Origin: an uncultured virus (IMG/VR IMGVR_UViG_3300031951_000043) | Lineage: Duplodnaviria > Heunggongvirae > Uroviricota > Caudoviricetes | Direction: 5' to 3' (one strand) | Length of the DNA: 64,000 nucleotides | Virus record (IMG/VR): IMGVR_UViG_3300031951_000043 | The notes under the pieces: model-generated | Database searches by the model: none | The model's input: only the letters and a program-made list of their open reading frames with translations | Told to the model about the DNA's origin: nothing | Shown: positions 2,269-39,225 of the stretch, one piece after another | Layout of the letters: each line of letters begins with the position of its first letter | Position numbering within the stretch: position 1 is the stretch's first letter | Made by a program: the position numbers and the translations under genes

Positions 2269-2270
2269 CA

Positions 2271-2366
2271 AAATGTTGATTAGTAGTTTAGTGGTTGAAC
2301 TAAAAAGAAAATCTGACGCTCAGTAGCAATAAATACCACCAGTCAGCTTCGTTCTAATTAACATTT
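2271..2366 (+). ncRNA. Putative structured RNA of unknown family
   Basis: 13-bp closing stem AAATGTTGATTAG/CTAATTAACATTT with internal hairpins. Confidence 0.4.
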
Positions 2367-2409
2367 TATTTTTATTGTTCTTTGACATATTTATCTTAAA
2401 AAAATTAAT

Positions 2410-3277: not shown

Positions 3278-3343
3278 TTATACATATATTTATATATAAA
3301 TATATTAAATTTAATTTTCGAATCTGAAGTACTTTGAAATTAT

Positions 3344-3428
3344 GGAGGATCCCACTGGCGCGGTACGTAGTCTTGAAAACTATGAGGTCGGTAATACCGA
3401 TGTGAAGGTTCGAGTCCATCATCCTCCG
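3344..3428 (+). tRNA. trnS: tRNA-Ser(TGA)
   Basis: GGAGGAT/ATCCTCC acceptor, CTTGAAA loop, long variable arm; atypical D arm. Confidence 0.8.
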
Positions 3429-3438
3429 CTAGATAAAA

Positions 3439-3470
3439 TTTGGAAGTTTGAAATTTTAGTTGTATCTTTG
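3439..3470 (+). promoter_or_regulatory. Bacteroidota primary-sigma promoter
   Basis: TTTG-N20-TATCTTTG. Confidence 0.7.
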
Positions 3471-3611
3471 TAGAGCGTGTGAAGCATGTGAGCTAAGTTA
3501 TCGAGGTGCTTGGTACGATTCGCGGTCGTGTTGCGCTGGAAACCATCAAAGGTTAAAAGACGTGAAACCAAGTTAAATGGTAAAATCTGACACATTCAGC
3601 CTTAAATTTAC

Positions 3612-3687
3612 GCCACTGTAGCTCAATTGGCAGAGCACTAGTTTTGTAAACTAGCGGTTAGCGGTTCGACTCCGCTCAGTGGCTCCA
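3612..3687 (+). tRNA. trnT: tRNA-Thr(TGT)
   Basis: CTAGT-TTTGTAA-ACTAG; encoded CCA. Confidence 0.93.
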
Positions 3688-3706
3688 AGAGTTCTTTGAA
3701 AAAGTT

Positions 3707-3836
3707 TGAGAAAAAGCGGAAGTACGAAAGTACGGGAAGATTGTGATAAAAAGAACAAGGAAATAGTCCCTCCCATTGCAGTCACAAGCATAATTGGGTA
3801 GAGTGGAAAGGTGAGTCCACGAACCGCTTTTTCTCA
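3707..3836 (+). ncRNA. Putative structured RNA
   Basis: Perfect 13-bp closing stem TGAGAAAAAGCGG/CCGCTTTTTCTCA; GTAC-GAAA-GTAC and GTGGA..TCCAC hairpins. Confidence 0.5.
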
Positions 3837-3847
3837 TTTTACATGAA

Positions 3848-4026
3848 AATATAAAATTAGTGAGCAAAGAGAAAGTGACTTCACCAGTCAGCGTAGTATA
3901 CAACGGAAGCACGGGCAAGAAAGTAGCATGGTAGCTACCTGAAATAAAAATCGATTGCTGGGACAAAACTGAAAACGTTTAATTGGATACCCTTAAAATG
4001 AAGATATACCTCACTAACTTTATATT
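3848..4026 (+). ncRNA. Putative structured RNA
   Basis: 16/17-bp closing stem AATATAAAATTAGTGAG/CTCACTAACTTTATATT; GC-richer interior; no credible ORF. Confidence 0.5.
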
Positions 4027-4031
4027 AAAAA

Positions 4032-4175
4032 TTTGTGGTCAGTACGGATTGACGTACCTAGTAAGCTGGTAAATTACATTACGAAGAAACGCTGAAGCGA
4101 CTAAGAAATGTACTAATATGTAATTATTAGTGGGTTGTTGTTAAGTCTTAGTATGTTAGTTTTTAACACCACAAA
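4032..4175 (+). ncRNA. Putative structured RNA
   Basis: 8-bp closing stem TTTGTGGT/ACCACAAA plus internal hairpins. Confidence 0.35.
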
Positions 4176-4179
4176 AAAA

Positions 4180-4253
4180 GCGAGTGTAGCTTAGTTGATT
4201 AAAGCGCCGTCCTTCCAAGTCGGAGATCGTCAGTTTGAGTCTGACCACTCGCT
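4180..4253 (+). tRNA. trnG: tRNA-Gly(TCC)
   Basis: GCGAGTG/CACTCGC acceptor, CTTCCAA loop. Confidence 0.88.
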
Positions 4254-4339
4254 CACTAATCCCCTCTAACCTCTGAAGAAATTCAAGTTATTGGGTAAAA
4301 CAGTTTCTTTTCATATTTATAGAATAAACATCTATCAAT

Positions 4340-16587: not shown

Positions 16588-17198
16588 GTTAATAAACTTT
16601 GAGCTTCTTTTTGTAATTTAACTTTAAAGTCTTCTTTAAAGTTATCATTTTCACTTAATTCTACCGGTACTTCGGTAAATGACCAATCTAAAGCTAGTGT
16701 TGCAACTAGATTCTTATCTTTATCAAAGATTGGAACAACAGCATGTGAATTTGTACCATGAGAACGAATAACTGATTTGGTTGCTAAATCATTAACATCA
16801 TCATAGACCGAATAAAAAAATCCATTATTCTCAAGGGCTTGGTGATAATACCAAGAAAAATTACTAACTAAAATATTCTGATATTTTTGTGCTATTGGTT
16901 CAAGACCATCGGTCATTCTTTCATATGTCATAGATGATTTTTGCATTGAGGAGTTTGTGTAAAAATTACCACCGTTATGAAATTGCGTTATTGTAATTCT
17001 ATCAGCATCATAATTTCTTTTAATTTCTTTTAAAGAGAAGTGAATAATTTCGTCTTTTGCAAATTGTTCGGTTAAATCTTTTTTAGATTTTCTTTCTTTC
17101 CGCAAATCCATAATTTTTTTAAAATAACCAGCGGTTATTAATGCAACTGATATTGAAGTAAAAGCTGTTATTAATGATGTAATTATAGTCGTTCCCAT
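16578..17198 (-). CDS. Putative T4 gpT-like holin (N-terminal TM helix plus GAF-like domain)
   Basis: Single TM; ADRITITQFHNGG motif; late motif upstream. Confidence 0.55.
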   Translation of the reverse strand: MGTTIITSLITAFTSISVALITAGYFKKIMDLRKERKSKKDLTEQFAKDEIIHFSLKEIKRNYDADRITITQFHNGGNFYTNSSMQKSSMTYERMTDGLEPIAQKYQNILVSNFSWYYHQALENNGFFYSVYDDVNDLATKSVIRSHGTNSHAVVPIFDKDKNLVATLALDWSFTEVPVELSENDNFKEDFKVKLQKEAQSLLTYL

Positions 17199-17290
17199 TC
17201 ACAAATCTTTTAATATAAATATATTAAAAATGTAAATAGAAAAAAAAAATACCATCGAATGATGGTATTTATAAAACTTTTTTATTTAAT

Positions 17291-17464
17291 TTAGTTTTTT
17301 GTTGTGTCTACCGCTGTTGTGTCAACAGAAACCATTGTGGTATCAGCAACCATAGCAGAATCAACAGAAACCGCAGTAGTGTCTACAGTAGCGGTTTCTT
17401 CTGTTGTTACAGGAGTTCCGCATGATGCTAAAACTACTAAAGAACCAAGAACAATTTTTTTCAT
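17291..17464 (-). CDS. Small lipoprotein (57 aa) with repeated D-T/S-T/A motifs, absent from ORF track
   Basis: MKKIVLGSLVVLAS-C lipobox; Thr/Val/Asp-rich mature part. Confidence 0.75.
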   Translation of the reverse strand: MKKIVLGSLVVLASCGTPVTTEETATVDTTAVSVDSAMVADTTMVSVDTTAVDTTKN

Positions 17465-17575
17465 TTTTTGTTTTTTTATATGTTTATTTGTACAATAATT
17501 ATCAAAAAAGATGAAAAAGTCAAATATTTTAAAAATTTTATTTTATTTGTGATATTTATAGTAAAATAATTCATT

Positions 17576-17908
17576 ATGAGTAAAATTGTTAAACTTAAAG
17601 AAAGAGATTTAACTGAGATAGTTAAACGTGCTTTAATCGGTAAAATGTTTATAGAAGAACAAAAAAAGGAAAAGATTGAAATACCGCAAAATTGTTTTGG
17701 CGGTCCAAAAACAGGTTTAGGTGGTTTAATTTTATTTACAACAATGTTGCAAAAAGAAGCGGATAATGGCGATATGAATAGTGAAAAATTAATTGCTGAT
17801 ATGAAAACCTTTTTAAAAGGTATGAATAGAGCAAACCCCGAAATGATTGCAACGTTATTAAAAAAATATAATAAAGAAAAGTACCTGCCTTGGGTGGGTT
17901 GTTTTTAA
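17576..17908 (+). CDS. Hypothetical late protein with KLKERDL..IV..IEEQ leader
   Basis: ATATTTAT upstream; leader resembles the LRR leader. Confidence 0.7.
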   Translation: MSKIVKLKERDLTEIVKRALIGKMFIEEQKKEKIEIPQNCFGGPKTGLGGLILFTTMLQKEADNGDMNSEKLIADMKTFLKGMNRANPEMIATLLKKYNKEKYLPWVGCF

Positions 17909-17975
17909 TATTCTAATCCCGTCGAATTCGAGGGGTTTAAAAGCAAAAAGGGTTCACAAAGGAACCCTTTTTAAT

Positions 17976-18350
17976 TGGTGGAGATGGAGGGTTTCGAAAC
18001 CCTCGTCTTCCGCTGTCAACCTAAAGAGACTACACGCTTAGAACAACATTAGTTCTTAATGTTTCGAAATATCAAGTTTCACTATATACCAACTTGCAAA
18101 GGTTTTCTTTGGTTAATTTTAAGTATCAACCACACTTTTTTTGGAATTTCTGTTGCTAGGTAAATTCCCAAATTACCCCTTGTAGGTGTTAGCCTTAGGC
18201 TACAGCTACTTCTTCAGTCTTGATGAGACCCAAAACTGACATCTTGTCTAAAACGTTGCCGTTTACTTGTTTGAACCATTTTAACAAGGTTGATTCACCC
18301 TTGACGTGCCTATTTAACCTAATCATCGGAATCAAATCCAACTCATCCCC
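17976..18350 (-). ncRNA. ssrA: tmRNA, predicted tag GNVLDKMSVLGLIKTEEVAVA
   Basis: 5' GGGGATG, 3' T arm and CATCTCCACCA, G3:U70 pair, internal frame 18260-18195 ending AVA-stop. Confidence 0.92.
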
Positions 18351-18422
18351 ATATATTTTCAAAGAACAATGCAAAGATAAGAACAAATTTTAAACTGACA
18401 AGTACCAACCTAAAAATAAATA

Positions 18423-18454
18423 TTTGCATAATAACAAAAGACTTTGTATATTTG
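18423..18454 (+). promoter_or_regulatory. Bacteroidota primary-sigma promoter, divergent from the tmRNA promoter box at 18372-18379
   Basis: TTTG-N20-TATATTTG. Confidence 0.7.
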
Positions 18455-18475
18455 TGGTATAAAATATAAAAAAAA

Positions 18476-19297
18476 ATGAATAATTTTGAATTTTTAAAGG
18501 AAGTACTATCGGTACCAAGTTCTTCATATAAAGAACATTTAATGATTGAGTTTTTGGAAAAATGGTTGACTGAAAATAATATCCCCCATTATACGGATGA
18601 TTTTGGAAATGTATATGCAACAAAAAAAACGAACTTAAAGGAAGGTGAGTTTTTTCCTTGCGTAGTGTCACACACCGATACCGTACATGATATTAGTAAT
18701 ATTAATATTTTAGAAAAGCAACTTCCGGATTCAGATAATATTATTAAATTAGCTCTAACGTCTGTAAATGATGATGGAATACCTAACGGTATTGGTGGTG
18801 ATGATAAATGTGGTGTTTATATTTGTCTTAGACTTTTAAAAGATTTACCGAATGTAAAAGCGGCGTTTTTTGTTAGTGAAGAAATTGGTTGTAGGGGTTC
18901 ATTAAATGCTGACCCAAATTTCTTTAAAGATGTTGGTTATGCGATTCAGTTTGATGCACCAGAAAACTGGATGGTTACATATACGTGTATGGGCGTGGAA
19001 TTATTTGATATGAAATCAGAATTTTTTGATAAATGTCATAATGTTCTTACCGAAAACTTTAACCATAAAAAAGATTATCTTAAACATCCATATACAGATG
19101 TTTACGCATTAAGAAAGAAATTTGACTTTGCTTGCATTAATATTTCATGTGGATATTACAATTATCACAGACCAAATGAATATGTTGTAGTTGATGATGT
19201 TGAGAACGCATATGATGTTGGAGTAAAGATGATTAGTGATTTGGGATGTTGTAGTTATATTTTTAATAAATCAAAAAAAACAAAATTTATGTTATAA
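18476..19297 (+). CDS. M20/M28/M42-clan zinc peptidase
   Basis: SHTDTVH, GGDDKCG, SEEIG, QFD and YHRPNE motifs. Confidence 0.85.
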   Translation: MNNFEFLKEVLSVPSSSYKEHLMIEFLEKWLTENNIPHYTDDFGNVYATKKTNLKEGEFFPCVVSHTDTVHDISNINILEKQLPDSDNIIKLALTSVNDDGIPNGIGGDDKCGVYICLRLLKDLPNVKAAFFVSEEIGCRGSLNADPNFFKDVGYAIQFDAPENWMVTYTCMGVELFDMKSEFFDKCHNVLTENFNHKKDYLKHPYTDVYALRKKFDFACINISCGYYNYHRPNEYVVVDDVENAYDVGVKMISDLGCCSYIFNKSKKTKFML

Positions 19298-19312
19298 AGA
19301 AAAGGGGGAAAC

Positions 19313-21499
19313 TTATTTCCCCTTTTCAATTTTAACCTTATCTTTTACGAATTTTAATTTATACTTTTTCATCTCAATCATCTCACCCTTTAGAATTTCC
19401 TCGGATATAAAATCTTCCACATATTCTTGTATTGCTCGTTTTAATGGTCTTGCACCAAACTGAGGGTCAAATCCAACTTTAGCGATGTGCTCGACCAATG
19501 AATTATCATATTTGATAAAATATTTTAATTTATTTAATCTTTCTACCAATCTATCCAATTCAATCTTAACAATTTCCTTGACATCATCTTCTTTTAATGT
19601 ATTAAAGACAACAACCTCATCAATTCTATTTAAGAATTCTGGAGCAAAGAAATTCTTCATTTCTTTTTGAATTATATCTCGTTTAGCTTCTTCATTAGCA
19701 AATGAGTTTTTACCGAAGCCAATTCCAGAACCAAAATCTTGTATTTTTTTAACACCAAGATTTGATGTTAAAATAATTAATGAGTTTCTAAAGTTTATTT
19801 TTCTACCTAAACTATCAGTTATAAAACCTTCGTCTAAAACCCTCAATAAGATTGAGAATATTTCTTTATTTGCTTTTTCAACCTCATCAAATAAAATAAC
19901 CGAATATGGTTTGTTTTTTACTTGTTCGGTTAATTGACCACCTTTATCATAACCAACATAACCGGGGGGAGCACCAACCAATCTAGATACGCTATGTTTT
20001 TCTTGATATTCTGACATATCAATTCTAATTAAGTTATCTTCGCTACCAAAGATTTCTTTCGCCATCTGTTTAGCTAAATGAGTTTTACCAACACCACTAT
20101 TACCAAGCAATATGAACGCACCAATCGGTCTATTTGGGTCTCTAATACCTAATCTATTTCTGCGAATAGCTTTCGCCATTTTTGTAATTGCTTCTTGTTG
20201 ACCAACAACTTTTTCACCCACATTCTTTTCCAAATTCAATAAATTCTTTGTATCGTCAGTGTTTAATTTGTTAATTGGTATTTTTGTCATTGTTGATACA
20301 ACATCATAAACCAATTCAGTTGTAACTTCTTTTCTTTTGGTTAAAAGAGTTTCTTCAAATTTCTTTTTTTCTTCATTAAGTTTATCGACAATCTTTTTTT
20401 CTTTATCCCTTAATTCCGCAGCTTTCTCATAATCCTGTTGTTTTACAACGATTAATTTTTCTTCCTTAATTTTATGTGCTTCATCTTTAAGGTGGTTAAT
20501 AATTTCCGGTAATTCAATATCTACTTGACTTCTAGCACCAACTTCATCAATAATGTCAAATGCTTTATCGGGAAATTCTCTGTCAGTTATATATCTATCA
20601 GCAAGGTTTACACATAAATCTAAAACCTCATCATTGTAACTTACTCGATGATAAAATTCATATTTATCTTTAACGTTTTTTAAAATTTCTAATGTTTCTT
20701 CTTTTGAGGGTGAATCAACAACAACTTTTTGAAATCTTCGTTCTAATGCACCATCTTTTTCAAAATTTTCACGATATTCATCTAGCGTTGTTGCACCGAT
20801 ACATTGAATTTCTCCTCTTGCTAATGCTGGTTTAAAGATGTTTGACGCATCTAATGACCCAGATGAATTACCAGCACCAACTAATGTATGAATTTCATCA
20901 ATAAAGACAATTATATCGGGGTTATTTTGTAATTCTTCAAGAATAACTTTAAGACGTTCTTCAAATTGACCTCTATATTTTGTCCCAGCAACAATAGATG
21001 TTAAATCAAGTAGTACAATTCTTTTATTTTCAAGGTTTCTTGGACATTCACCTAGATAAATTTTCATAGCAAGACCTTCAACTATGGCAGTTTTACCACA
21101 ATTATGTGAAGATATGCCATTTGTTAAATATTTTCTTTCCTCATCTAATACTTCTAAATCAAAAGTATCGTGAACCCCAATATATTCTTTTTCAATAACA
21201 TCATGTAATTGATTATCGTCATACCAAACTAAATCTCCAATATTAATATTCTTTAATGATAACCAATATGTGTTATTCTGTTCTTCAACTAAATTATTTG
21301 CACAATCAAAAGATGTCTCAACTAAATGGGATTCTGAACCAGAAAGCTCAACGTTATTTGATAATGTTATTTTATAACACTCTTTTTTTGTTTTTTTAAA
21401 CAAATTACCAATTAATTTGTAACCAGATGGGGTCTTTACTTTATAAGTTCCCCCGTTTTTTTCAACATCGTTAAAAAAATCTTCAATTTTTATTTTCAT
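19313..21499 (-). CDS. clpC: Split-intein C-fragment (133 aa) fused to the C-terminal part of a ClpC/ClpB AAA+ chaperone
   Basis: Intein blocks (SESHL, DTFDLEV, ISSHN/C) then CGKT, FIDEIH, GATT, GNSGVGKT, GARPLKR. Confidence 0.93.
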   Translation of the reverse strand: MKIKIEDFFNDVEKNGGTYKVKTPSGYKLIGNLFKKTKKECYKITLSNNVELSGSESHLVETSFDCANNLVEEQNNTYWLSLKNINIGDLVWYDDNQLHDVIEKEYIGVHDTFDLEVLDEERKYLTNGISSHNCGKTAIVEGLAMKIYLGECPRNLENKRIVLLDLTSIVAGTKYRGQFEERLKVILEELQNNPDIIVFIDEIHTLVGAGNSSGSLDASNIFKPALARGEIQCIGATTLDEYRENFEKDGALERRFQKVVVDSPSKEETLEILKNVKDKYEFYHRVSYNDEVLDLCVNLADRYITDREFPDKAFDIIDEVGARSQVDIELPEIINHLKDEAHKIKEEKLIVVKQQDYEKAAELRDKEKKIVDKLNEEKKKFEETLLTKRKEVTTELVYDVVSTMTKIPINKLNTDDTKNLLNLEKNVGEKVVGQQEAITKMAKAIRRNRLGIRDPNRPIGAFILLGNSGVGKTHLAKQMAKEIFGSEDNLIRIDMSEYQEKHSVSRLVGAPPGYVGYDKGGQLTEQVKNKPYSVILFDEVEKANKEIFSILLRVLDEGFITDSLGRKINFRNSLIILTSNLGVKKIQDFGSGIGFGKNSFANEEAKRDIIQKEMKNFFAPEFLNRIDEVVVFNTLKEDDVKEIVKIELDRLVERLNKLKYFIKYDNSLVEHIAKVGFDPQFGARPLKRAIQEYVEDFISEEILKGEMIEMKKYKLKFVKDKVKIEKGK

Positions 21500-21505
21500 T
21501 TTAAA

Positions 21506-21799
21506 TTATAATATTTCAATATTATGCGTATTAACATCAGAAATTTTTTCAACCTCTATGTACGTATCACCAAGTACACACCCCGGTTCACCAATTATAA
21601 TTGGATTATTTTTCTTTCTTCTAGATAAGATTTGAGCAATTCTGTTAATTTCATTTTCTCTACCAATAACAGGGTCAAGTTTTCCTTGTTCTGCCATTTT
21701 TATCAAATCTTTACTAAAATTATCTAAAACCGGTGTTGAACCATCTTTTGTTTTTTCGGAACCAGATTTTTGGTTGCTATTTTCTTCAAATTCTATCAT
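21506..21799 (-). CDS. clpC: ClpC N-terminal part (73 aa) fused to a 24-aa split-intein N-fragment
   Basis: [22 protein letters not shown] followed by intein block A CVLGDT. Confidence 0.92.
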
Positions 21800-21915
21800 G
21801 ATTTTATTTTAAAAATAAAATGTGGTTATTTAAAATAAATAGTTCAGAAAAAACTAAAAAGTTTTCATCTCTATTGAAAAAATTTGTTATATTTGCAGAA
21901 TAAAACAAAACAACC

Positions 21916-22476
21916 ATGAAAAAGTTAATCATTATTCTAAGTTTATTTCCGAGTATTGTTTGTTCTCAAACAAGATTGGATACGCTCATTTTAAATGAGG
22001 TGAATAAATATCGAGCGGAAAATGGTTTAAATCTTTTAACGTTCACTGCGCAAGGTCAATGTGTTGCTGAAAACCAAAAAGACTATATGTTGCTAACTGG
22101 TTGTGTTAATCATGAACAAATTGAGGATGTTGATGATTTTGATGTTGAACCAGATTTTGCAAAAAGAAATTTTAAGTGTGGAATTGATACATTGGATACC
22201 AAAACAGTTTACATGGAAGTTCTTGTTGCTGTGTTGGACACAACAAATGCTTCATTAGAGGATATTGCAATTAAAGCTGTAAATGGTTGGAAAAGTTCAG
22301 AGGGACATAACTTCGCAATCTTATTACCAATGATTAACTATGTTGGTGTTTCTAGCGGTACTAACCATAAACTAGTTGAATACTACGAAGACCTTTACAC
22401 GGGTGAACTTACTATGGTTGTTACAGAACAAAAATATTGGTTTGTATCTTTAAATGCTTATAATATTTATTATTAA
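21916..22476 (+). CDS. Secreted CAP/SCP domain protein
   Basis: VNKYRAENGL, WKSSEGHN motifs; signal peptide. Confidence 0.82.
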   Translation: MKKLIIILSLFPSIVCSQTRLDTLILNEVNKYRAENGLNLLTFTAQGQCVAENQKDYMLLTGCVNHEQIEDVDDFDVEPDFAKRNFKCGIDTLDTKTVYMEVLVAVLDTTNASLEDIAIKAVNGWKSSEGHNFAILLPMINYVGVSSGTNHKLVEYYEDLYTGELTMVVTEQKYWFVSLNAYNIYY

Positions 22477-22560
22477 GAAAATATCATAAAAACTTGCACA
22501 AGGATTTTTTTATATGTATCTTTGTGATGTTCTTAAATTAATAATTAAAAACAAAACAAA

Positions 22561-22836
22561 ATGAAAAAAACATTTTTTTCCGTGTCAGTAATTATTGGTC
22601 TTATGACATCGTGTAATAATCAGAATAATCGGCAAGAAATCCAACAAACTGAACCGATTGTTGGGGTAAAGGAAATTAGAGCCGATACTTCATTTACTAT
22701 TAATGAAGAAACTGGTGAACCAATGATGGTAATTGAGGAAAAAGTCGTAATTGTAAAGCGAGATACTTTCCATAGTATGGACGAAAAAACCGGATTTTTT
22801 AATATGGTTGTTGTTGAAACAATAATTTCTGAATAA
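22561..22836 (+). CDS. Lipoprotein
   Basis: LMTS-C lipobox; host-type promoter upstream. Confidence 0.7.
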   Translation: MKKTFFSVSVIIGLMTSCNNQNNRQEIQQTEPIVGVKEIRADTSFTINEETGEPMMVIEEKVVIVKRDTFHSMDEKTGFFNMVVVETIISE

Positions 22837-23397
22837 TTACTTTCTCTGATAAATGGGTTTTATGGTACCCGGTGTAGGTTCTATTGGTTTAGTATGTGTG
22901 GCTTTAACTTTTGATTCCTTAAAACTAAAAACTTTTAACATGTAATCTAAATACGCATCAACCGTATTTGTACCTAAGTTACCATCAACAAAATCTCTTT
23001 CTTGACCAGAACTATCTTTAAATTTTAAAGGTAAACCAGCAAGTTTCACTAAATCAGACTGAAGCGATTTAATTGCTTCTACGGAAACTCCCGATTTTTT
23101 TGCCATTTCAGTTAATTGATTCATATTATATTTCCTCAATTCAACTTTTGCTTTTTTTATTTCATTTTCTCTTTCCAATCGTCTTTCATCTGGCGATAAA
23201 GATGAAAATGGTACAGAAGAATATTTTCCTATTTTAAATAATTTATTAATAAACTCAATAGCAGGTGAACTTTCCTGACTCATAGATAGGGATATACTTT
23301 TCTGTTGTTCATCCAAATATTGTTGGTAAATAGCTGTTTTGTGCATTTCCAATATTCTGGATTTTTCATTTTGGTCTATTGTGAATATTTTTTTCAT
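22837..23397 (-). CDS. Late protein with peptidoglycan-binding-like motif
   Basis: IKSLQ..VDGNLGTNT; EKSRILEMH leader. Confidence 0.6.
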   Translation of the reverse strand: MKKIFTIDQNEKSRILEMHKTAIYQQYLDEQQKSISLSMSQESSPAIEFINKLFKIGKYSSVPFSSLSPDERRLERENEIKKAKVELRKYNMNQLTEMAKKSGVSVEAIKSLQSDLVKLAGLPLKFKDSSGQERDFVDGNLGTNTVDAYLDYMLKVFSFKESKVKATHTKPIEPTPGTIKPIYQRK

Positions 23398-30945: not shown

Positions 30946-30960
30946 GTTTATTATTTCTTG

Positions 30961-31035
30961 TAGTTCCTTTCGGACTCGAACCGAAAACCTTTTCCACGTC
31001 AAGGAAACGCTCTGAACCAATTGAGCTAAGGAACT
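30961..31035 (-). tRNA. trnV: tRNA-Val(GAC)
   Basis: TTTCC-TTGACGT-GGAAA. Confidence 0.9.
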
Positions 31036-31164
31036 GTTAACAAAGGGGGTTAATGATAACCCCATTTGTTTTCTACCAACCTAAATCTTTCGAAACTTTG
31101 CCATGTCACCTGTAAATAGTGACACTTATTCAGAAGTTGGTGGACCCGGTGAGGCTCTTTTTTG

Positions 31165-31233
31165 TACTCCGTGAGAGATTCGAACTCTCAGCCTTCTCGT
31201 TAGGAGTGAGATGCTCATCCAGTTGAGACGGGG
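31165..31233 (-). pseudogene. trnR: Degenerate tRNA-Arg(CCT) with damaged 5' end
   Basis: CTCCTAA loop and T arm intact; 5' acceptor strand and positions 8-10 broken. Confidence 0.65.
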
Positions 31234-31239
31234 CATGAA

Positions 31240-31743
31240 CTATCTATATCTGTTCTCCACGTACCAATATATGGCTTTATTTTTCACCTCAACACGTTCC
31301 TTGACTATACCACGAACTCCAGATGAAGTAGCATATTTTCTTGATAGAGACTTGTCAGACAATATAAGTTGTATTACATATCCACTCCACACACTATCAT
31401 AGAGTCCGTCCGACTCCACAACTTCTTCCTCTTGTGTTGTTATTGGAGAGAATTCTGGAAGTCTACGAAACTCTTTCTCTGTTCCATCTTCCGCGTAGAA
31501 GCGGAAACCATCACTCTCGGCAATAATGGTCAAATCACCTTCCATAAGATCTATCAGACAAGATTGTATACCAACCCTGACCTTGTATAATCCAGATTCA
31601 AAATGCTTAGTGATTTCTCCTTTTCCATATTCAACTTCTTTCAATTGATGATCTATTACAACAATTCTTAGATCTTCACTAGGAGCTTTCACGCGCAACT
31701 CATACTCGACAATGGTTTTAGTTGGTATTGTGGTCACTCTCAT
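31240..31743 (-). CDS. Hypothetical protein, GC-richer than flanks
   Basis: 167-aa ORF. Confidence 0.65.
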   Translation of the reverse strand: MRVTTIPTKTIVEYELRVKAPSEDLRIVVIDHQLKEVEYGKGEITKHFESGLYKVRVGIQSCLIDLMEGDLTIIAESDGFRFYAEDGTEKEFRRLPEFSPITTQEEEVVESDGLYDSVWSGYVIQLILSDKSLSRKYATSSGVRGIVKERVEVKNKAIYWYVENRYR

Positions 31744-31807
31744 TTGGCAGCGTCTTTTATGATGTGCTTGACCTCTTCGCTGGAGAAGCCCATTATGTGC
31801 TTGAGTA

Positions 31808-33001
31808 TCATTTTTGTTTCAAATCTAAGTTAAGATCTTTAGCCGATTTCATCATCATAATTTCCATGAAATTTGCCGCCGCATTGCTAGAACCACTTGA
31901 GTTACCACTCATATATTGAGGAACAACATTTCCTTGATATTTCGAGAAGGCGTTTGCCCAATATTCTTGTGATTTAAGCCAAGCATCCAACTTTTGCTCA
32001 AGAGCGCCATTAGCAGACATTACAAGACGTTTCTTTTCAGCTTCACCTTGACCTTCAAGAATTTGTTTTTCTTTATTAAGTCTAGCAGTTTCAACATCAA
32101 GTTCAGCAACTCGTTTACGCGATTCAGCCTCAGTCACTTGTTTTGCTTTAATAACCTCTTGATCCCACTTAGCTTTAGCTGCTTCAGCTTCACCTTGTTT
32201 TGCGATGGTAATAGCATCTTGTTCGGCTTTTTTAGAATTTGCAATTGCCAATTGTACACTCATTAATGCTTGTTGTTGATTTTGAATTTGCTTTTCAACG
32301 GTCGCATCATATGTAATACCATTAATTGAAATATTATAGAGTCTAATTCCATATCCAGCAATTGGTGATTCTTCTTGTCGAATTGGTTGACCGGGAGTCT
32401 TTTCAACAATCTCAACTTTGGTTACTAATTTTTCCTCACCAGTCAATGGATCAGCTTCTTTAACCTCAACTTGTTTAGTTTTATATACACCTCTAGAAGC
32501 TTGATCTTCAATATAGAAAATCAAATCATTTCTTTTTTCCGCATACGACTCTTTAGATGTCATAAGCGGTCCAGTCATGTAAACTGATTTTTCAATGTTA
32601 GTTTTAATTAACTGATTCTCCAACGCTTCTTGCGAACCAAATGTTGAGTGTAATTTAATAATTTGTTCAGAAGATAAGGGAAGATCATAACGAACCGATC
32701 CTGAAATTGTTGCATGTCCACCATCATTCCATTTTACGGCAATTGATTTATCTGTTTCACCCTCCTCTTTTGGAGAAGAAAACCAAAATTGATTTGATTT
32801 ACGATAATGTGTTGCCCTACCAAATAATTGCCAAACCCAACCCGGTTCAGTATATGTATGAAGATTACCATCAAATGGGTCTTGAATAACAACAACTTCT
32901 CCAGCATCAACATCTTCCCAAATAAGGGGAACAAAGATTAGACCAAGAACAATAAATACGCCAATAACAATTGCACTAATAGATTTTTTAAAGTTTTCCA
33001 T
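31808..33001 (-). CDS. SPFH/band-7 domain membrane protein
   Basis: N-terminal TM, VDAGEVVV, Ala/Glu/Lys coiled coil. Confidence 0.85.
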   Translation of the reverse strand: MENFKKSISAIVIGVFIVLGLIFVPLIWEDVDAGEVVVIQDPFDGNLHTYTEPGWVWQLFGRATHYRKSNQFWFSSPKEEGETDKSIAVKWNDGGHATISGSVRYDLPLSSEQIIKLHSTFGSQEALENQLIKTNIEKSVYMTGPLMTSKESYAEKRNDLIFYIEDQASRGVYKTKQVEVKEADPLTGEEKLVTKVEIVEKTPGQPIRQEESPIAGYGIRLYNISINGITYDATVEKQIQNQQQALMSVQLAIANSKKAEQDAITIAKQGEAEAAKAKWDQEVIKAKQVTEAESRKRVAELDVETARLNKEKQILEGQGEAEKKRLVMSANGALEQKLDAWLKSQEYWANAFSKYQGNVVPQYMSGNSSGSSNAAANFMEIMMMKSAKDLNLDLKQK

Positions 33002-33007
33002 GTTTTT

Positions 33008-33274
33008 TTAAATTTTTGTTTTGTTTTTAATTTTATTAATTTTATTTACAGTTTGATTAACTTCATCATTCACCACATTATACTTCTCAACCGCCTTATC
33101 AACTTTTTCTTCCAGTTCATCTATCGTTGATGAGTGTTGGATTTTTTCTTTATTTTTCTTTTTAAGAAACCAAAAAAATTCTAATTTGGGAATAAAAAGA
33201 GGTAGAATTATTTGTGTTATAATTGTTAGTATGCTTATAACTGTTAATAAAAATATTATAATTATTTTAGCCAT
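33008..33274 (-). CDS. Small membrane protein
   Basis: TM helix plus coiled coil. Confidence 0.65.
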   Translation of the reverse strand: MAKIIIIFLLTVISILTIITQIILPLFIPKLEFFWFLKKKNKEKIQHSSTIDELEEKVDKAVEKYNVVNDEVNQTVNKINKIKNKTKI

Positions 33275-33467
33275 TTTGGTTTTTAAATTTAAAAATTATA
33301 TCATTTATATCATTTCTTATTGATTCCATATCATCTATGTCAAGATAAAATGAAAATGAATCATCACCTTGACTACAGGTTAACCATATTTCATCATCAC
33401 CACCTTGAATAAAAAATTCCAAGTCTTTATCTCCTTGTGAAAATTTATATGTTTTTATTGTTTTCAT
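33267..33467 (-). CDS. Hypothetical protein
   Basis: Likely start MKTIK. Confidence 0.55.
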   Translation of the reverse strand: MKTIKTYKFSQGDKDLEFFIQGGDDEIWLTCSQGDDSFSFYLDIDDMESIRNDINDIIFKFKNQNG

Positions 33468-33508
33468 TTTATAGTACAAATATAGTATATGTTTTTAACA
33501 TAAACAAA

Positions 33509-33694
33509 TCAAATGAAAATTTCACCAAATAAGGAAATATATTCATTTTTTGGTATTTTACAATAAACATCACCAACCCAAAAAAATACATCGTCACCAA
33601 TTTCATTCGGTTCGGTGATATTCCATTTTTTAACAATATTGACAGGTATTTTGTCGTAATCTAAATTAGGGAAAGCAACATGTACGTAGTCCAT
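33509..33694 (-). CDS. Hypothetical protein
   Basis: ORF downstream of TAnnTTTG. Confidence 0.55.
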   Translation of the reverse strand: MDYVHVAFPNLDYDKIPVNIVKKWNITEPNEIGDDVFFWVGDVYCKIPKNEYISLFGEIFI

Positions 33695-33773
33695 TTTTTT
33701 TTAGTTTACACAAAGATAATAACAAATATTTAAATTTCCAATAACTGATAATATTTATTTTAAAAGTTGGTAT

Positions 33774-34559
33774 ATGAGAAATCTAATCAAAAAAGTTTTG
33801 CGTGAATTTGTATTAAAAGAAGCGGAAGAGACAGACCACGCAAAATGTCGTTATGTTAATAGAGTTGCGAATGAAAGAAATCATAAAACAACAAATGTTA
33901 AGGACAAAATTGGTAAAGAAGGAATTGAAAACATTAAATTTATCATCGAACTTGTTAAAAAAATAGATTTTCCAAAAAATATCGATATTGCAATTAATTT
34001 AGCTTATTCACCATCAAGAGATGTTAACAATCCAGAAGGTTTTGAAAACGCAAAAGGATTTTATTTTAATGACCCTAATGATAATTGTACTAAAAAAGAA
34101 AATATTGAACCTAGCTGGGGACATTATTTGTGGTTAATAATAAGAGATAATTCTATCACAACAATAATGATTCATAGAACCAAACCAAAAGATTTAAGAG
34201 AGGTTAATATAGATAGATTAATAAATAATTTAAATAACTATTTTGGACTTAATATTAAAGAAAAAGAACTTTCGTCGGCTGAAAATTTAAAACAAATAGA
34301 TTTAACAAATGAGAGACTTTTCTTTAAGATGATTAGTAAACCAGAAAAAAAATCTGAGGAATCTCCTTTAAAAAATGAAGAAATACTTCTTGTTAAACAA
34401 AAAAAATATGTTATTGATAAAATTAAAAAAACAATTCATCCAAAAAATAAACCAAAAGAAATACAGAAAATAGAAGAATTTATCAATTTAATTTTAAATT
34501 TAGAACCTTTTACCCCTGAAGATGAGAAAGCTATTGAATACTTAATTTCTTTGATTTGA
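33774..34559 (+). CDS. Hypothetical late protein (LIKKVLRE leader)
   Basis: ATATTTAT upstream. Confidence 0.72.
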   Translation: MRNLIKKVLREFVLKEAEETDHAKCRYVNRVANERNHKTTNVKDKIGKEGIENIKFIIELVKKIDFPKNIDIAINLAYSPSRDVNNPEGFENAKGFYFNDPNDNCTKKENIEPSWGHYLWLIIRDNSITTIMIHRTKPKDLREVNIDRLINNLNNYFGLNIKEKELSSAENLKQIDLTNERLFFKMISKPEKKSEESPLKNEEILLVKQKKYVIDKIKKTIHPKNKPKEIQKIEEFINLILNLEPFTPEDEKAIEYLISLI

Positions 34560-34841
34560 TTTTATAATTAATCTGTCATAATGCGTGAAATAACCCCGTT
34601 TATTAGCCTCATCTAATATTTCATCAGTTGTTGGTCTTGGTTGTTTTTCCAAATAATATTTGATATTTTTTTCATCCATATATTCTCTAATGGTTTCTTC
34701 AACATTACTAAATAAGCGATAAATATTATCAGCTAAAATATCAGCATCAACCAATCCGGTTACATTTTCCATCATATCATCAAAAACAAAATTTGATGAT
34801 TCATCCTTTTTAATAATCAAGATATAATAGTCGTATTTCAT
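34542..34841 (-). CDS. Hypothetical protein
   Basis: ORF coupled to upstream gene. Confidence 0.6.
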   Translation of the reverse strand: MKYDYYILIIKKDESSNFVFDDMMENVTGLVDADILADNIYRLFSNVEETIREYMDEKNIKYYLEKQPRPTTDEILDEANKRGYFTHYDRLIIKSNQRN

Positions 34842-35293
34842 CTGCAATGATAATCCGCCGCTTTAGTTGCGATTTGAATATTTGGTTTTACATTAACTTG
34901 ATACCCCAATGAATTCGCCCACCCCTTTGTTGCACTGATTAATTGATTACTTTTATAAAATTCATCCTCATTATAATCCATATCTAATTCAAGTTTTAGA
35001 CTGACATTAACTTTGTTTTTAAACCATTCCGCAATTTCAATCGTGCTTTCAGCTTCCTTCCAAAGTCTAGTCCATAAATCATTAATTCTATTGATTCTTT
35101 CTTTTGTGAAAATATAATGGACACCCCTAGTACCATAACGATAGGCGATAACGGAAACATAAACGGTTTCATTTGACACGTTTTGTGAATCAGTACCGAT
35201 ATGGATTTTTACATCAGGATTTTCCCTGATAACCTCAAGAGTATGTTTTACAACATCTACTGGAGTTCCATCTAATTTTCTAAACACTTTCAT
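34838..35293 (-). CDS. Ribonuclease H-like YkuK (DUF458) family protein
   Basis: IHIGTDSQ..RLWKE..ELDMDYN..KAAD. Confidence 0.82.
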   Translation of the reverse strand: MKVFRKLDGTPVDVVKHTLEVIRENPDVKIHIGTDSQNVSNETVYVSVIAYRYGTRGVHYIFTKERINRINDLWTRLWKEAESTIEIAEWFKNKVNVSLKLELDMDYNEDEFYKSNQLISATKGWANSLGYQVNVKPNIQIATKAADYHCR

Positions 35294-35305
35294 TTTATAG
35301 TTATT

Positions 35306-35662
35306 TTATTCGTCTACACTGATGAGGGGGAATTCAATTTTAAGTCTATAATGAATAAAATCATTCATATCTTCCACTAAATCAAAATATTTTCTATAAG
35401 ACTCACCATTTGACATTTTTATTTTTAAAAATGGTTTGTAATAAACAACATAATCCTCAATATATAAGTTTTTGTTTTTAAGAATCTCTTCTTCTGTTAT
35501 AAAAAAAGTTCCATTGTAATACCAATCAGCGTAATAAAATCCTTCTTTTCTTTCTTTACAAAATAAACTTTTTTTTCTGCGATTTTGCCAAACAAATTTA
35601 TCATTTTCTATTTTTTCAAATTTTCTAATACTACAAATTTGTTTGATATTAATTTCTTCCAT
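35306..35662 (-). CDS. Hypothetical protein
   Basis: ORF downstream of TAnnTTTG. Confidence 0.65.
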   Translation of the reverse strand: MEEINIKQICSIRKFEKIENDKFVWQNRRKKSLFCKERKEGFYYADWYYNGTFFITEEEILKNKNLYIEDYVVYYKPFLKIKMSNGESYRKYFDLVEDMNDFIHYRLKIEFPLISVDE

Positions 35663-35807
35663 TTTTAAAAGTTTGGTACAAAGATATGAAAAGTTTTATG
35701 AAAAAAAAAATTGCAACGATTTTAGCCTACGTTAATATTTTGTGGGAAGAGCTTATCGTTATTAAGTTTCGCTTATTATACCAACACAATTTTTAATTCA
35801 TAATACA

Positions 35808-35883
35808 TGGTGGACCGGAAGGGATTCGAACCCTCATCCTCCTGAGTGCAAATCAGGTGCTCATCCAGTTGAGCTACCAGCCC
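35808..35883 (-). tRNA. trnA: tRNA-Ala(TGC)
   Basis: CCTGA-TTTGCAC-TCAGG; G3:U70; CCA. Confidence 0.92.
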
Positions 35884-35992
35884 ATGTTCCCGTTTTTCTT
35901 CATCATTTAGTTCACCACCCAGATGAACAAGTGGTGGATTTTGCTTTTGGAAGTCTGCATTACAGACCGTCACCACGGGAAAACCAACGCAG

Positions 35993-36067
35993 TAGTTCCT
36001 GTGTGACTTGAACACACGCCCTTTCGAATGTAAATCGAACGCTCTAAACCAACTGAGCTAAGGAACT
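35993..36067 (-). tRNA. trnV: tRNA-Val(TAC)
   Basis: TTCGA-TTTACAT-TCGAA. Confidence 0.9.
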
Positions 36068-36075
36068 ATATTTCG

Positions 36076-36147
36076 CACCCCCTGAAGAATTCGAATCCTC
36101 ACCAACGATGTTGGAGATCGTTACTCTACCAATTGAGCTAAAGGGGT
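36076..36147 (-). tRNA. trnW: tRNA-Trp(CCA)
   Basis: ACGAT-CTCCAAC-ATCGT. Confidence 0.88.
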
Positions 36148-36155
36148 ATGTATTT

Positions 36156-36233
36156 TGGGTGAATAACGAGACTCGAACTCGCAAAAATCCGGGACCACAA
36201 TCCGGAGTGTATACCAATTCCACCATATTCACC
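36156..36233 (-). tRNA. trnH: tRNA-His(GTG)
   Basis: TTGTGGT loop; G-1 extended acceptor stem. Confidence 0.88.
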
Positions 36234-36241
36234 ATAATTCG

Positions 36242-36320
36242 TACTCCCGGTGAGAATCGAACTCACACCCTTTCGGATCTGTTCCTAAAACAGACGCGGC
36301 TACCGTTACGCCACAGGAGT
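36242..36320 (-). tRNA. trnL: tRNA-Leu(TAG)
   Basis: TCTGT-TTTAGGA-ACAGA; variable arm. Confidence 0.9.
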
Positions 36321-36371
36321 GTTTAACATCACAAAGATATAACTTTATTTTCTTATCTCCAAATTAAACTG

Positions 36372-36443
36372 AGGTCGAAGTGAGAATCGAACTCACGTAA
36401 GAAGTTTTGCAGACTTCCGCCTAAACCACTCGACCATTCGACC
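36372..36443 (-). tRNA. trnC: tRNA-Cys(GCA)
   Basis: GAAGT-CTGCAAA-ACTTC; U73. Confidence 0.92.
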
Positions 36444-36629
36444 TTACTTTTCACCTAATTTTCTAATAATACCTCCCTTAGCTTCATACCAAGTACCCTG
36501 ATAATTAAATTCAAATCCGGTATCTCTCATACAAATACCCATAAATTCACCGTCTCTTGTTTTTAAACCAACCCCTGAAAAAACATCTTCAAGAATTATT
36601 TCACCGTTTTCATCTGTTGTTAATTTCAT
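36444..36629 (-). CDS. Small hypothetical protein within the tRNA array
   Basis: Start MKLTTD downstream of tRNA-Arg. Confidence 0.65.
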   Translation of the reverse strand: MKLTTDENGEIILEDVFSGVGLKTRDGEFMGICMRDTGFEFNYQGTWYEAKGGIIRKLGEK

Positions 36630-36646
36630 AATTTTAATTTTTTTTG

Positions 36647-36718
36647 TATCCCCCGAAGGATTCGAACCCTCACCAACTGAGTCGAAATCAGGTATGCTAT
36701 CCATTACACTAGAGGGAC
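36647..36718 (-). tRNA. trnR: tRNA-Arg(TCG)
   Basis: TTTCGAC loop. Confidence 0.9.
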
Positions 36719-36978
36719 TTTTTCTCTTTTCTTTTTTTCCATTCTACAGCAAGTGCTGCTCCAATAAAAGCGCCTAACATTGCAGCACCAAATAAACGTG
36801 TATCATTTACATAATTTACAGTGGTGAAAGCACCAAATAAAACAATTAATGCTGACCATATTCCGGATGCGATAGTTTTTCTTTCCTCCACTTTAATAAA
36901 ATATAAAGTCCATGCAATATCAGCTAAAATCATGGAAAACATAACCAGCAAAAATTTTAATTCAAAGGGTATATTCAT
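36709..36978 (-). CDS. Small multi-pass membrane protein
   Basis: Three hydrophobic helices. Confidence 0.7.
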   Translation of the reverse strand: MNIPFELKFLLVMFSMILADIAWTLYFIKVEERKTIASGIWSALIVLFGAFTTVNYVNDTRLFGAAMLGAFIGAALAVEWKKRKEKKSL

Positions 36979-37412
36979 CTTTTTAATAATTTATCACATT
37001 TATTTTTCCAATTTGATGAGAGACATGAAATTGGTGTTACTTTTGTAAGTTGATTAATTAATCTAATTTCTTGTGGATTATCATCCAAATGAAATACAAA
37101 ATCATTTCCATTCTTTTTAAACCACCAAGCCTTTGGGTCGTGGTTTGTAAAAATCACTCGTTCCCTTGGGATTCCTAAATCTTTCGCCACCAAAAACAAA
37201 TCTTCTTCATTTGACCACCAAAGAACATCATCGTCTCTTTTAAAAGTTTCATCATCAGGATATTTCTTTCTGAAAAATTCTTTTGGATTTTCCGGTCTTG
37301 AGGTAACAATCCATACCTCAATGTTGGAATCTTCAATTAATTCCTTACAATAATTTTGTATGAACAGCGAATGACCAAGACAATCATCAAAATCAAAACT
37401 TACTTTTTTCAT
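36975..37412 (-). CDS. HAD-superfamily hydrolase
   Basis: VSFDFDDCL, IVTSR, HLDDN. Confidence 0.8.
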   Translation of the reverse strand: MKKVSFDFDDCLGHSLFIQNYCKELIEDSNIEVWIVTSRPENPKEFFRKKYPDDETFKRDDDVLWWSNEEDLFLVAKDLGIPRERVIFTNHDPKAWWFKKNGNDFVFHLDDNPQEIRLINQLTKVTPISCLSSNWKNKCDKLLKR

Positions 37413-37711
37413 GCTAACCAACGAATTAAATATTTTGCTTGCATTTGAGATGTAAAATCAGCCTCACCCATATCTGTAACAGGAATTTCAAAACTTATCA
37501 CTTCAGTATCCTCACCACCATCTCCCAAAAATAATGAATAATAAGCAACACCGAGTCTGATTTTATCAAAAAACGCTATTGGATTGTTTTTATATAGCAT
37601 TTTTTTAATTTCGTTTTTTCTTATTGTATTTAATTTTTTATCCATTTTATCTAAAGTTATTTTATCAACGCTATCCATTGCTTCTTTATATAATTCTTCG
37701 TCTGTCTTCAT
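37409..37711 (-). CDS. Hypothetical protein
   Basis: ORF with ATGA overlaps. Confidence 0.65.
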   Translation of the reverse strand: MKTDEELYKEAMDSVDKITLDKMDKKLNTIRKNEIKKMLYKNNPIAFFDKIRLGVAYYSLFLGDGGEDTEVISFEIPVTDMGEADFTSQMQAKYLIRWLA

Positions 37712-39225
37712 CGTATTAAATTAATATTACCAATTTTATTAATTAAGTTATTAGCTATAATTCCGCTAAATTTATAAACATAAACACCATTCTGACAATT
37801 AAGCCCATCCCATGATTCGTTTTGATTGGTAAATTCATAAATTTTCTCACCCCAACTATTATAAATTTGCATTTTAAAATTTTCAATTTTTGAAATTGTT
37901 GTTACTTTAAATGAATCATTTATATTATCATAATCGGGTGAAAATGTGTTAGGAATATAAATATCTCCACAAATTTCTGAATAAATTTCTAATGTTGTTA
38001 AATCGCCAAAACAACCAAATTCATTTATCTCATAAACACTTAATATGTTTTCAAAATTAGAAATGTTTGGTAAATTTATTGTTATAGTATTTTGTGTCAA
38101 ATTTAATGTATCTTGATTTAAAATCCAAATATATGAAGAATTTATATTACCAGTTGTTAAAAATTGTAAAGTTCTATCGAATTCTGAGCAATTTACAAAA
38201 CTATTTTCACCGATAATAATAACATCTTCAGGATTTGGATTCACAACAACTAATATCGAATCGTTGTTTCTACAACCAAAAGAATCAATAAATGTATATT
38301 CAACCCAATTTGTTCCAAATTGTGGTAAATAATTAGGACCAATATTCCAAGTACCACCAATAGGGAATGCTTGCATTTGAACCGGTGAATCATTAAAACA
38401 TAGTGTGTCAACAGGATTAATTAATACTACAGGTAATTGATTTACGTTTACAGTAAAAATAGTTGTATCTATACAATTATTAATTGTTTCTTCAATAATA
38501 CTAATTTGTTGAGTCCCTATATTATTCCAAATATTTATTTGGGGATTACCTGTATAAAAAATTGAGTTATTTGTTGGATTTGCTAATTCATGAATTGTCG
38601 TATCCCCAAGACATACGGTTTGGACCAATGGGGTTATTGGATTACTTTCAAAGTCTAAAGGAATATTGGTACCATTAAATAAATTAAATGGTGATAGATT
38701 ACAGTTATTATTTCCCCAAGATCCCCAAGTACCGTCAGCACCAGCGGTTATTTGAATTATAATGTCCTCAGAGGAACATGTCTCAACAACTGTGGTTGTA
38801 AAACAAAAATTCCATGTACAATTTCCAAAATCACCCCAATCATTACCGGGATTTCCATCAATAACACCACCTTGATTTGTTTCAAAAAACCAACCCGGTC
38901 CAGCAGAAATACCCGTTGATGATGATGTTACCGTACCAGAAATCCAAACCCAATTACCAGAACCACCATTACAATTGGTAGGTGATGCTTGCGGAATAGG
39001 GGGTGTTAAAGAAGGACTTAGATTAATTTCAAATCCCTCAACCCAATTTGAACTAACGTTCAAACCGTTCCAACCATTCATTGTATAACACACATTTAAA
39101 ACAGTTCCACTAGCGTATTGACCATTAATTGGGGTTGGGTTTATTGAAAAACTTTCAATCCCATTACATTGATTAAACGCTAAATTACTAATTAAAGTAA
39201 AAATTATTAATAATACTTTTTTCAT
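37708..39225 (-). CDS. Secreted protein with gliding-motility-associated (T9SS type B) C-terminal domain
   Basis: Signal peptide; YIPNTFSPD.D..ND.F..IYNSWGEKIY..WDG..GVYVY..G.INLIR. Confidence 0.85.
   Translation of the reverse strand: MKKVLLIIFTLISNLAFNQCNGIESFSINPTPINGQYASGTVLNVCYTMNGWNGLNVSSNWVEGFEINLSPSLTPPIPQASPTNCNGGSGNWVWISGTVTSSSTGISAGPGWFFETNQGGVIDGNPGNDWGDFGNCTWNFCFTTTVVETCSSEDIIIQITAGADGTWGSWGNNNCNLSPFNLFNGTNIPLDFESNPITPLVQTVCLGDTTIHELANPTNNSIFYTGNPQINIWNNIGTQQISIIEETINNCIDTTIFTVNVNQLPVVLINPVDTLCFNDSPVQMQAFPIGGTWNIGPNYLPQFGTNWVEYTFIDSFGCRNNDSILVVVNPNPEDVIIIGENSFVNCSEFDRTLQFLTTGNINSSYIWILNQDTLNLTQNTITINLPNISNFENILSVYEINEFGCFGDLTTLEIYSEICGDIYIPNTFSPDYDNINDSFKVTTISKIENFKMQIYNSWGEKIYEFTNQNESWDGLNCQNGVYVYKFSGIIANNLINKIGNINLIR

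Follow-up and report, generated by a model that had tools for sequence, protein, structure and literature searches.

How does a phage obtain a whole Clp ATPase from a gene that is broken, in the middle of its first ATP-binding motif, into two open reading frames (ORFs), each fused to one part of an intein? The question is raised by positions 19313 to 21799 of the virus record IMGVR_UViG_3300031951_000043, of which the first 64 kb were analysed (this whole stretch is called the window below; the record has 116,550 bases, 30% GC and a completeness of 39%). The answer that we favour, with a probability of roughly 0.88, is that the products of the two adjacent genes associate through a class-1 intein of the S1 split type and trans-splice to a ClpC-type ATPase of 668 residues (73 + 595), in which the first Walker A motif is restored as GEPGCGKT.

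A Clp gene in two parts

Both ORFs lie on the minus strand and share one frame. The first (21799-21506, 97 amino acids, aa) consists of the N-terminal host part, or N-extein, which ends in GEPG, of an N-terminal intein part (IntN) and of a TAA stop; the second (21499-19313, 728 aa) opens with the C-terminal intein part (IntC), which ends in SHN, and continues with CGKT and the rest of the C-extein, so that the break falls between GEPG and CGKT of the first Walker A. An earlier note on this DNA, made from the letters alone, had given the same coordinates, the two ORFs in a common frame and a gap of TAA plus 6 nucleotides (nt), and all of this holds on re-reading of the sequence. The parts are as follows.

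21581-21799 (-), N-extein, 73 aa, from the start of the first AAA+ module to GEPG; ClpB and ClpA profiles match from about position 145-150
21509-21580 (-), IntN, 24 aa, with Cys1, block A, strand beta-2 and a conserved tail with His19; net charge -4
21506-21508 (-), TAA stop of the first gene, unchanged in RNA contig X10 and DNA contig X8
21500-21505 (-), spacer of 6 nt, where relatives hold a free-standing nuclease gene of ~1.2 kb
21101-21499 (-), IntC, 133 aa, beginning before strand beta-3 and helix alpha-1, with block B Ser55/His58, block F Asp114 and His132-Asn133
19316-21100 (-), C-extein, 595 aa, with Cys+1 and CGKT, Walker B, AAA lid, UVR coiled coil, an intact second AAA+ module, IGF motif and D2-small domain
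20081-20104 (-), second Walker A (GNSGVGKT), unbroken in the window
19313-19315 (-), TAA stop of the second gene

The host protein has two AAA+ modules with Walker A and B, lid and D2-small domain, the first Walker A being complete only after splicing, together with a UVR coiled coil (PF02151, above cut-off) and an IGF at residue 593 of the second ORF. A short UVR-type middle coiled coil and an IGF/IGL motif for docking to ClpP are features of ClpC. A Clp N-domain gave no Pfam match on the 97-aa ORF, the profile matches beginning only beyond it, and we therefore speak of a ClpC-type ATPase and not of a full ClpC, which narrows the name that the earlier note had used. A weak match to NleH (E 0.033) and matches to POU, spectrin and ankyrin were far under cut-off and were taken as chance. 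Since 45 of the 77 pairs of same-strand neighbours in the contig lie at most 12 nt apart, a gap of 6 nt between the two Clp ORFs is ordinary spacing here; TAA, for its part, is the terminator of 86 of the 111 contig ORFs.

The stop codon and its conservation

The stop is real. The earlier note had proposed that the TAA at 21506-21508 be checked in reads and homologues, a sense codon at this place meaning a contiguous mini-intein. No sense codon was found: one contig of RNA run X10 (20094-21817) and one of DNA run X8 (20895-21614) cross the TAA with 0 differences, neither run being flagged as a possible source, and the split junction is identical in two other viral records. Run X13 was left uncounted (no change at the stop is among the changes listed for it), as was a contig of run X12 that has fewer than 31 letters on one side of the stop. 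In the RNA runs X10 and X12 one loose end, at 21507, fits neither G000 nor G001, the latter a relative described below; a brief match by chance is its probable cause. DNA run X8 also has joints in which the intein is skipped; the contig that they stem from is divergent (23 differences), and we read them as intein-free relatives, not as RNA splicing. An alternative genetic code was rejected, as were sequencing error, readthrough and an RNA intron; Rfam detected no intron in the four loci searched, only a transfer-messenger RNA (tmRNA) in those loci and in window 17000-23000.

The stop is also conserved. Among the best 80 of 593 confirmed viral loci, 56 read through the Walker A unbroken, 23 stop after 24 intein residues and one, L021, encodes a contiguous mini-intein; with 56 uninterrupted loci and 24 inserts that all sit at the exact GEPG-CGKT bond, the insertion is not due to chance. 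The window pooled with 157 loci made a set of 158, in which both halves were parsed in 87, 56 were intein-free and 15 were dropped (half beyond the fetched DNA, or host or pattern unmatched). The 87 parsed loci represent 39 distinct alleles: 29 close Clp alleles, one distant Clp allele and 9 in another AAA host. The split is found at the same place in 28 of the 29 close alleles, which bears out the atypically split, short-N intein that the earlier note had described: IntN has 24 aa in 27 of the split alleles and 26 aa in one, and the stop occupies the same codon in 27. That codon is TGA in 15 alleles, TAA in 12 and TAG in one, the second ORF stands at frame offsets 0, 1 and 2 in 8, 5 and 15 of them, and the spacers between the halves range from 6 to 1214 nt. 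Such variety in stop codons and frame offsets excludes sequencing error, readthrough and recoding as general explanations of the split.

The single contiguous close allele (L021:3217-3669) is a mini-intein of 151 aa without the His19 tail. With split outgroups it nests inside the split alleles, behind several starred branches, and it is likely, rather than established, to be a re-fusion of the split intein: the approximately unbiased (AU) test of its placement stops just short (p=0.053), and trees lacking the larger allele set do not fix its position, both of which tell against regarding re-fusion as settled. Two library proteins, P0014 and P0030, look contiguous yet retain tail and linker.

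Signs of a working intein

The residues needed for splicing are conserved: Cys1, block B Ser55/His58, block F Asp114, His132, Asn133 and Cys+1 are present in 29 of the 29 close alleles, and His19 of the IntN tail in all 28 split ones, being missing only in the contiguous L021. NCBIfam intein models match the window intein, all under their cut-offs. Both genes are under purifying selection. The ratio of non-synonymous to synonymous changes (pN/pS) against 15-16 viral alleles, uncorrected, with synonymous sites near saturation and pairs that are not independent, is 0.16 for the N-extein, 0.18 for IntN residues 1-15, 0.35 for the IntN tail, 0.46 for IntC and 0.22 for the C-extein; over 50 codons of the N-extein, comparison with L006 gives 17 synonymous changes versus one non-synonymous.

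The fold could be assessed on the contiguous relative L021, whose IntC is 57% identical to that of the window: it is predicted as a HINT fold with a predicted local distance difference test score (pLDDT) of 95, and we extend this prediction to the window intein. The best structural match of the model is VidaL (Z 22.3, rmsd 1.3 A over 138 residues, the next match having Z 19.2), which Foldseek finds with an E of 3e-12. A predicted complex of the window IntN with the IntC of L021 scored 0.85 versus 0.02 for the best control, the docking mark being one that is reached by 116 of 157 solved pairs and by 2 of 215 mismatched pairs. At least 84% of the contacts recur between runs, and the partner has a pLDDT of 60 or more. 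This result shows likeness only, i.e. a cross-allele pair that resembles solved inteins. IntN is acidic (net -4) and the first 40 aa of IntC are basic (net +5), in line with the charge complementarity of split-intein halves described in PMC2677866 (this and the other papers cited here are drawn on in the part of their text that is accessible). Taken on its sequence the window intein looks active, and we infer, rather than observe, trans-splicing of the two Clp halves.

Split type and comparison with known inteins

PMC13014065 distinguishes natural inteins split after strand beta-2 (S1, with VidaL and PolB16 as examples) from those split after helix alpha-1 (S2, as in AceL-TerL and GOS-TerL), with short natural IntN of 15-37 aa, a range that includes the 24 aa found here. 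In the model of L021 the strands span residues 7-12 and 17-22 and the helix residues 23-33; IntC begins at model residue 19, ahead of that helix, and on this model the window intein is therefore an atypically split class-1 intein of S1 type. The AceL-TerL (S2) type, to which the earlier note had likened it, was rejected, because helix alpha-1 is encoded by the second gene and the cut precedes beta-3; with this helix on the C-part the closest type is VidaL.

VidaL (PDB 6vgv/6vgw; IntN of 16 aa, S1 according to PMC13014065) shares with the window intein the Cys-dependent class-1 chemistry and a helix alpha-1 on the C-part. In the alignment, chain residue 25 of the fused VidaL structure stands opposite the second residue of the window IntC. 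The two differ in that identity is only ~20%, the window IntC has an insertion of ~12 residues, and its IntN is 8 residues longer, with an extra tail that carries the invariant His19; the window intein is known from sequence alone and sits in a Clp ATPase, whereas the host of VidaL is, we take it, UvsX. AceL-TerL, GOS-TerL and the consensus intein Cat (PDB 6dsl) resemble it in their short IntN (25-30 aa for AceL-TerL and Cat), long IntC and phage origin, and CatC matches the intein profile at E 3e-4, but all three have the S2 split according to PMC13014065, whereas the window intein is cut earlier and its host is not a terminase. The PolB16 OarG intein (PMC10189870; PDB 8cpn/8cpo) has an S1 split, a short IntN (15 aa) and a similar fold (Z 15.3), but uses Ser1 and Ser+1 with a dispensable block B His, where the window has Cys1 and Cys+1 and keeps the block B His. 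Finally, the inteins DnaB-b, MCM-a and RFC-S-a (PMC4760082) are likewise inserted inside an NTPase P-loop, a hot spot for inteins. The accessible text of that paper lists LonB as an intein-bearing P-loop NTPase and names ClpP as well, but no ClpA, ClpB or ClpC host.

Proposed assembly of the ATPase and alternative explanations

In the mechanism that we propose, both Clp genes would be translated from one transcript, the second by re-initiation 6 nt past the first stop, and the acidic IntN is predicted to dock on the basic N-terminal region of IntC. Class-1 splicing, to which the conserved residues and established chemistry point, would then proceed through a thioester at Cys1, transfer to Cys+1 and cyclisation of Asn133, and would ligate Gly-1 to Cys+1; the restored Walker A would permit ATP binding at the first site. 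A few results do not favour this mechanism, or favour it less than one would wish: from the RNA contigs one can read neither the strand nor the existence of one transcript, of all parts of the locus IntC is under the weakest constraint, the complex was modelled with the IntC of a relative and not the cognate one, and the last seven residues of IntN (18-24) are not confidently placed in it.

The four rival explanations that we weighed are unlikely even when taken together. One is that the two halves are held together by non-covalent contacts, the intein pieces serving as docking tags, and that the ATPase works unligated, as the fragmented Aeh1 NrdA does. Assembly through tails without splicing has a precedent (PMC3045599), and our complex model speaks of docking and not of chemistry. 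But the splice residues would then hardly be invariant in 29 of 29 alleles, and a domain of 157 residues lying in mid-P-loop would, judging from P-loop geometry, displace the Walker A lysine; we hold this explanation to be quite improbable, if the least so of the four. There is a slimmer chance that the stop is read through, bypassed or removed at the RNA level, to yield one precursor splicing in cis, as the in-frame ORFs of the window, 9 nt apart, and the existence of the contiguous L021 could suggest. This hardly agrees with 20 of 28 split alleles being out of frame, with spacers of such different lengths and three different stops, with TAA as the common terminator of the contig, with the negative Rfam search and with an RNA contig in which the junction is unchanged.

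An equally slim chance is left to a pseudogene, or to a dead first ATP site with a function for the long second gene alone. That gene does carry an intact second AAA+ module, and Clp proteins of the host could complement, but selection holds the N-extein and IntN as tightly as the C-extein (0.16 and 0.18 versus 0.22 in pN/pS) and the 24-aa length of IntN is kept in 27 of 28 alleles. As for an error of sequencing or assembly in a contiguous mini-intein, an in-frame gap of 9 nt would indeed look like this if one base were wrong; with the junction repeated in two other viral records and in the X10 and X8 contigs, and the stop at the same codon in nearly all split alleles, this is scarcely credible. 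Trans-splicing is thus the reading that we retain, and most likely we are dealing with a selfish insertion that is tolerated, not with a regulator; nothing in the data indicates conditional regulation.

Nuclease insert and origin of the split

No endonuclease domain or gene is present at the window locus, as the earlier note had said; what it could not see is that this is probably a derived state, most relatives having a free-standing nuclease gene between the halves. A spacer of ~1.2 kb occurs in 18 of the 28 split alleles, and those inspected hold an ORF of ~390 aa that overlaps the start of IntC. The sister allele L138 (100/99 support, 96% extein identity to the window) has such an ORF of 389 aa, which matches a PHROG homing endonuclease at E 2e-7. 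In the other 10 alleles the spacers measure 6 to 360 nt, and in L022 and L026 they still contain the 3′ end of the nuclease ORF. Behind the IntN stop, the motif TATTTAT is present in all 18 alleles with the insert versus one of the 10 with short spacers, and a hairpin before the nuclease gene gave z of -4.0, -3.2, -1.7 and +0.1 in the four relatives folded; the window has neither the promoter motif nor the hairpin (z 0.80). On the intein tree, at least 6 changes between presence and absence of the nuclease are required. In L008 (3340-4525) the nuclease ORF between the intein halves is broken in pieces, an early stage of decay. A nuclease homolog was sought in G001 and none was found, in a search run without a positive control.

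Since its sister allele has the nuclease, the window allele has most likely lost it, and it is most likely a 'fractured gene' of the type described by Dassa et al. (2009; PMC2677866) in environmental phages, where a nuclease-less stage is included. As in those genes, the host gene of the window is divided between two ORFs on one strand, and each of these carries one half of the intein. The full order of host-N/IntN, free-standing endonuclease and IntC/host-C on one strand is matched by the 18 insert-bearing relatives, which resemble the published loci in the overlap of the nuclease gene with the IntC start as well, and may do so in the promoter-like motif and frequent hairpin that precede this gene. 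The window fits the nuclease-less step III of Dassa et al., represented by locus gp41-7, although gp41-7 keeps its hairpin and the window has none. Other differences are that the hosts named in the accessible text include no Clp ATPase, that all but one of those inteins are canonically split, that the promoter-like motif is TATTTAT in the Clp family versus TATAAATA in the published genes, and that the nuclease of the Clp site, unlike those of Dassa et al., has no Pfam match to Vsr/DUF559 or GIY-YIG.

The cassette of split intein and free-standing nuclease would spread among Clp alleles by homing, and the window allele, its nuclease lost, could no longer home by itself. Homing fits the patchy presence of the intein on the host tree: in an extein tree of 63 rows (27 intein and 36 distinct empty alleles; 3 intein alleles were too short to be included) at least 11 changes in intein presence are needed, and starred branches force at least 5 of them. 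Against this picture it must be said that shuffles gave a mean of 20.5 changes versus the 11 observed, i.e. presence is still clustered, and that repeated precise loss of the intein is a possible cause of the patchiness; that, of the relatives folded, L007 and L018 have a significant hairpin and L024 and L138 do not; and that the spacer ORF also has a weak likeness to T7 endonuclease I (E 0.51) and no Pfam match, so that its label as a nuclease rests on one PHROG match and this weak likeness. An endonuclease-like domain (TnsA-like, NUMOD3) is apparently fused in frame before IntC in P0035 and P0036.

Related inteins in other ATPases and Clp genes in three pieces

A search of 1.84 billion representatives with the intein profile gave 329 matches at E<=0.001 and 47 at E<=1e-10. 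To our knowledge, only a handful of natural split inteins with a short IntN have been characterised. The earlier note had called this type rarer, which is true of characterised examples only: in 39 of the 47 best matches (E<=1e-10) the IntC match lies within the first 30 residues, a count that fragment gene calls may inflate. In most of the members inspected IntC is followed by (C/T/S)GK(T/S), in AAA, PhoH, RecA-like or helicase hosts (Pfam scan of 44 of the 150 listed matches). A related split intein, with a 24-aa IntN and the tail His, interrupts the Walker A of other ATPases (L115, L144-L151 and L154; L142, L143 and L153). The nuclease ORF of L142 is 37% identical to that of L138 despite the different host gene, and L115 has a NUMOD3/TnsA-like nuclease in place of the L138-type ORF. 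Among contigs of GTDB genomes, 0 of 17 candidates proved to be a relative of the intein; the GenBank phages yielded no more than 8 matches, all distant (27-33% identity), 7 being to records of cultured phages and mostly annotated as terminase.

Three alleles have the Clp gene in three pieces with two different split inteins (L095:3508-9043, L086:4598-9003 and L131:1993-6327). Their second intein cuts the second Walker A after GVGK, with an IntN of 31-32 aa and a Thr at +1; an ORF of 391-406 aa stands between its halves in L095 and L086 (DUF559-like in L086) and is absent in L131. In L045 the IntN of this second site is present while the first site is empty. We lean slightly towards the view that the S1-split family with a His-bearing 24-residue IntN forms, with its free-standing nuclease, one mobile cassette that targets the Walker A DNA of several unrelated phage P-loop ATPases and cycles through invasion, nuclease loss and re-fusion, two cassettes in one Clp gene giving a three-piece protein that would need two orthogonal trans-splicing reactions. 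If so, the family would be the first to let the reversal from split to contiguous and a natural tandem ligation be put to the test on closely related natural alleles.

Atypically split inteins, fractured genes and P-loop insertion sites are already known (PMC4760082, PMC10189870), and the split Clp locus by itself shows no new chemistry or regulation. A Clp ATPase as the host of a split intein is apparently unpublished: a literature search, in which subscription journals were thinly covered, found no such host, no natural three-piece gene and no relevant case in huge phages. As tools, the family offers 28 natural split alleles, an IntN of 24 aa within the range of peptide synthesis and a contiguous natural control. 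For evolution, it holds the gene-breaking stages of Dassa et al. (nuclease present, decaying and gone) within one family and possibly a step absent from their model, re-fusion without the nuclease. Its interest for phage biology is that fractured genes are carried beyond DNA metabolism into protein quality control.

The phage and the surroundings of the locus

The host of the split Clp gene is a large freshwater phage. It carries T4-like terminase, portal and major capsid genes, and the sequencing runs with the Clp locus are mostly labelled freshwater or 'fungus' metagenome, with a single marine one. The relative G001 (256 kb, 85% complete) has a Clp locus identical to that of the window, which is the sole Clp ATPase match in the record; ClpP (PF00574) was searched for in it and not found, a negative that, at 85% completeness, does not prove the gene absent.

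About 1 kb downstream of the Clp gene the window encodes a phage tmRNA (17976-18350, minus strand; Rfam, 100 bits), where RNA contigs are far deeper than over the neighbours, with an end-to-start joint in one run. An M42/M20-like peptidase gene (18476-19297, plus strand) is convergent with the Clp gene, and peptidase-like neighbours of the Clp gene also occur in some relatives (L026, L107 and L131). The window has 22 tRNA genes, at 2111-4254 and 30960-41955. Leaders in the contig are A-rich, and only 2 of the 111 ORFs have a Shine-Dalgarno-like motif; A-rich leaders and few such motifs are associated with Bacteroidota hosts. The motif TATTTATA is found upstream of 20 of the 111 ORFs when their own strand is read, and of 7 when the opposite one is. 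Finally, the portal ORF (52488-55628, 1046 aa) has an HNH-like stretch and the major capsid ORF (59546-61405, 619 aa) exceeds the length of its family profile, so that both may carry insertions.

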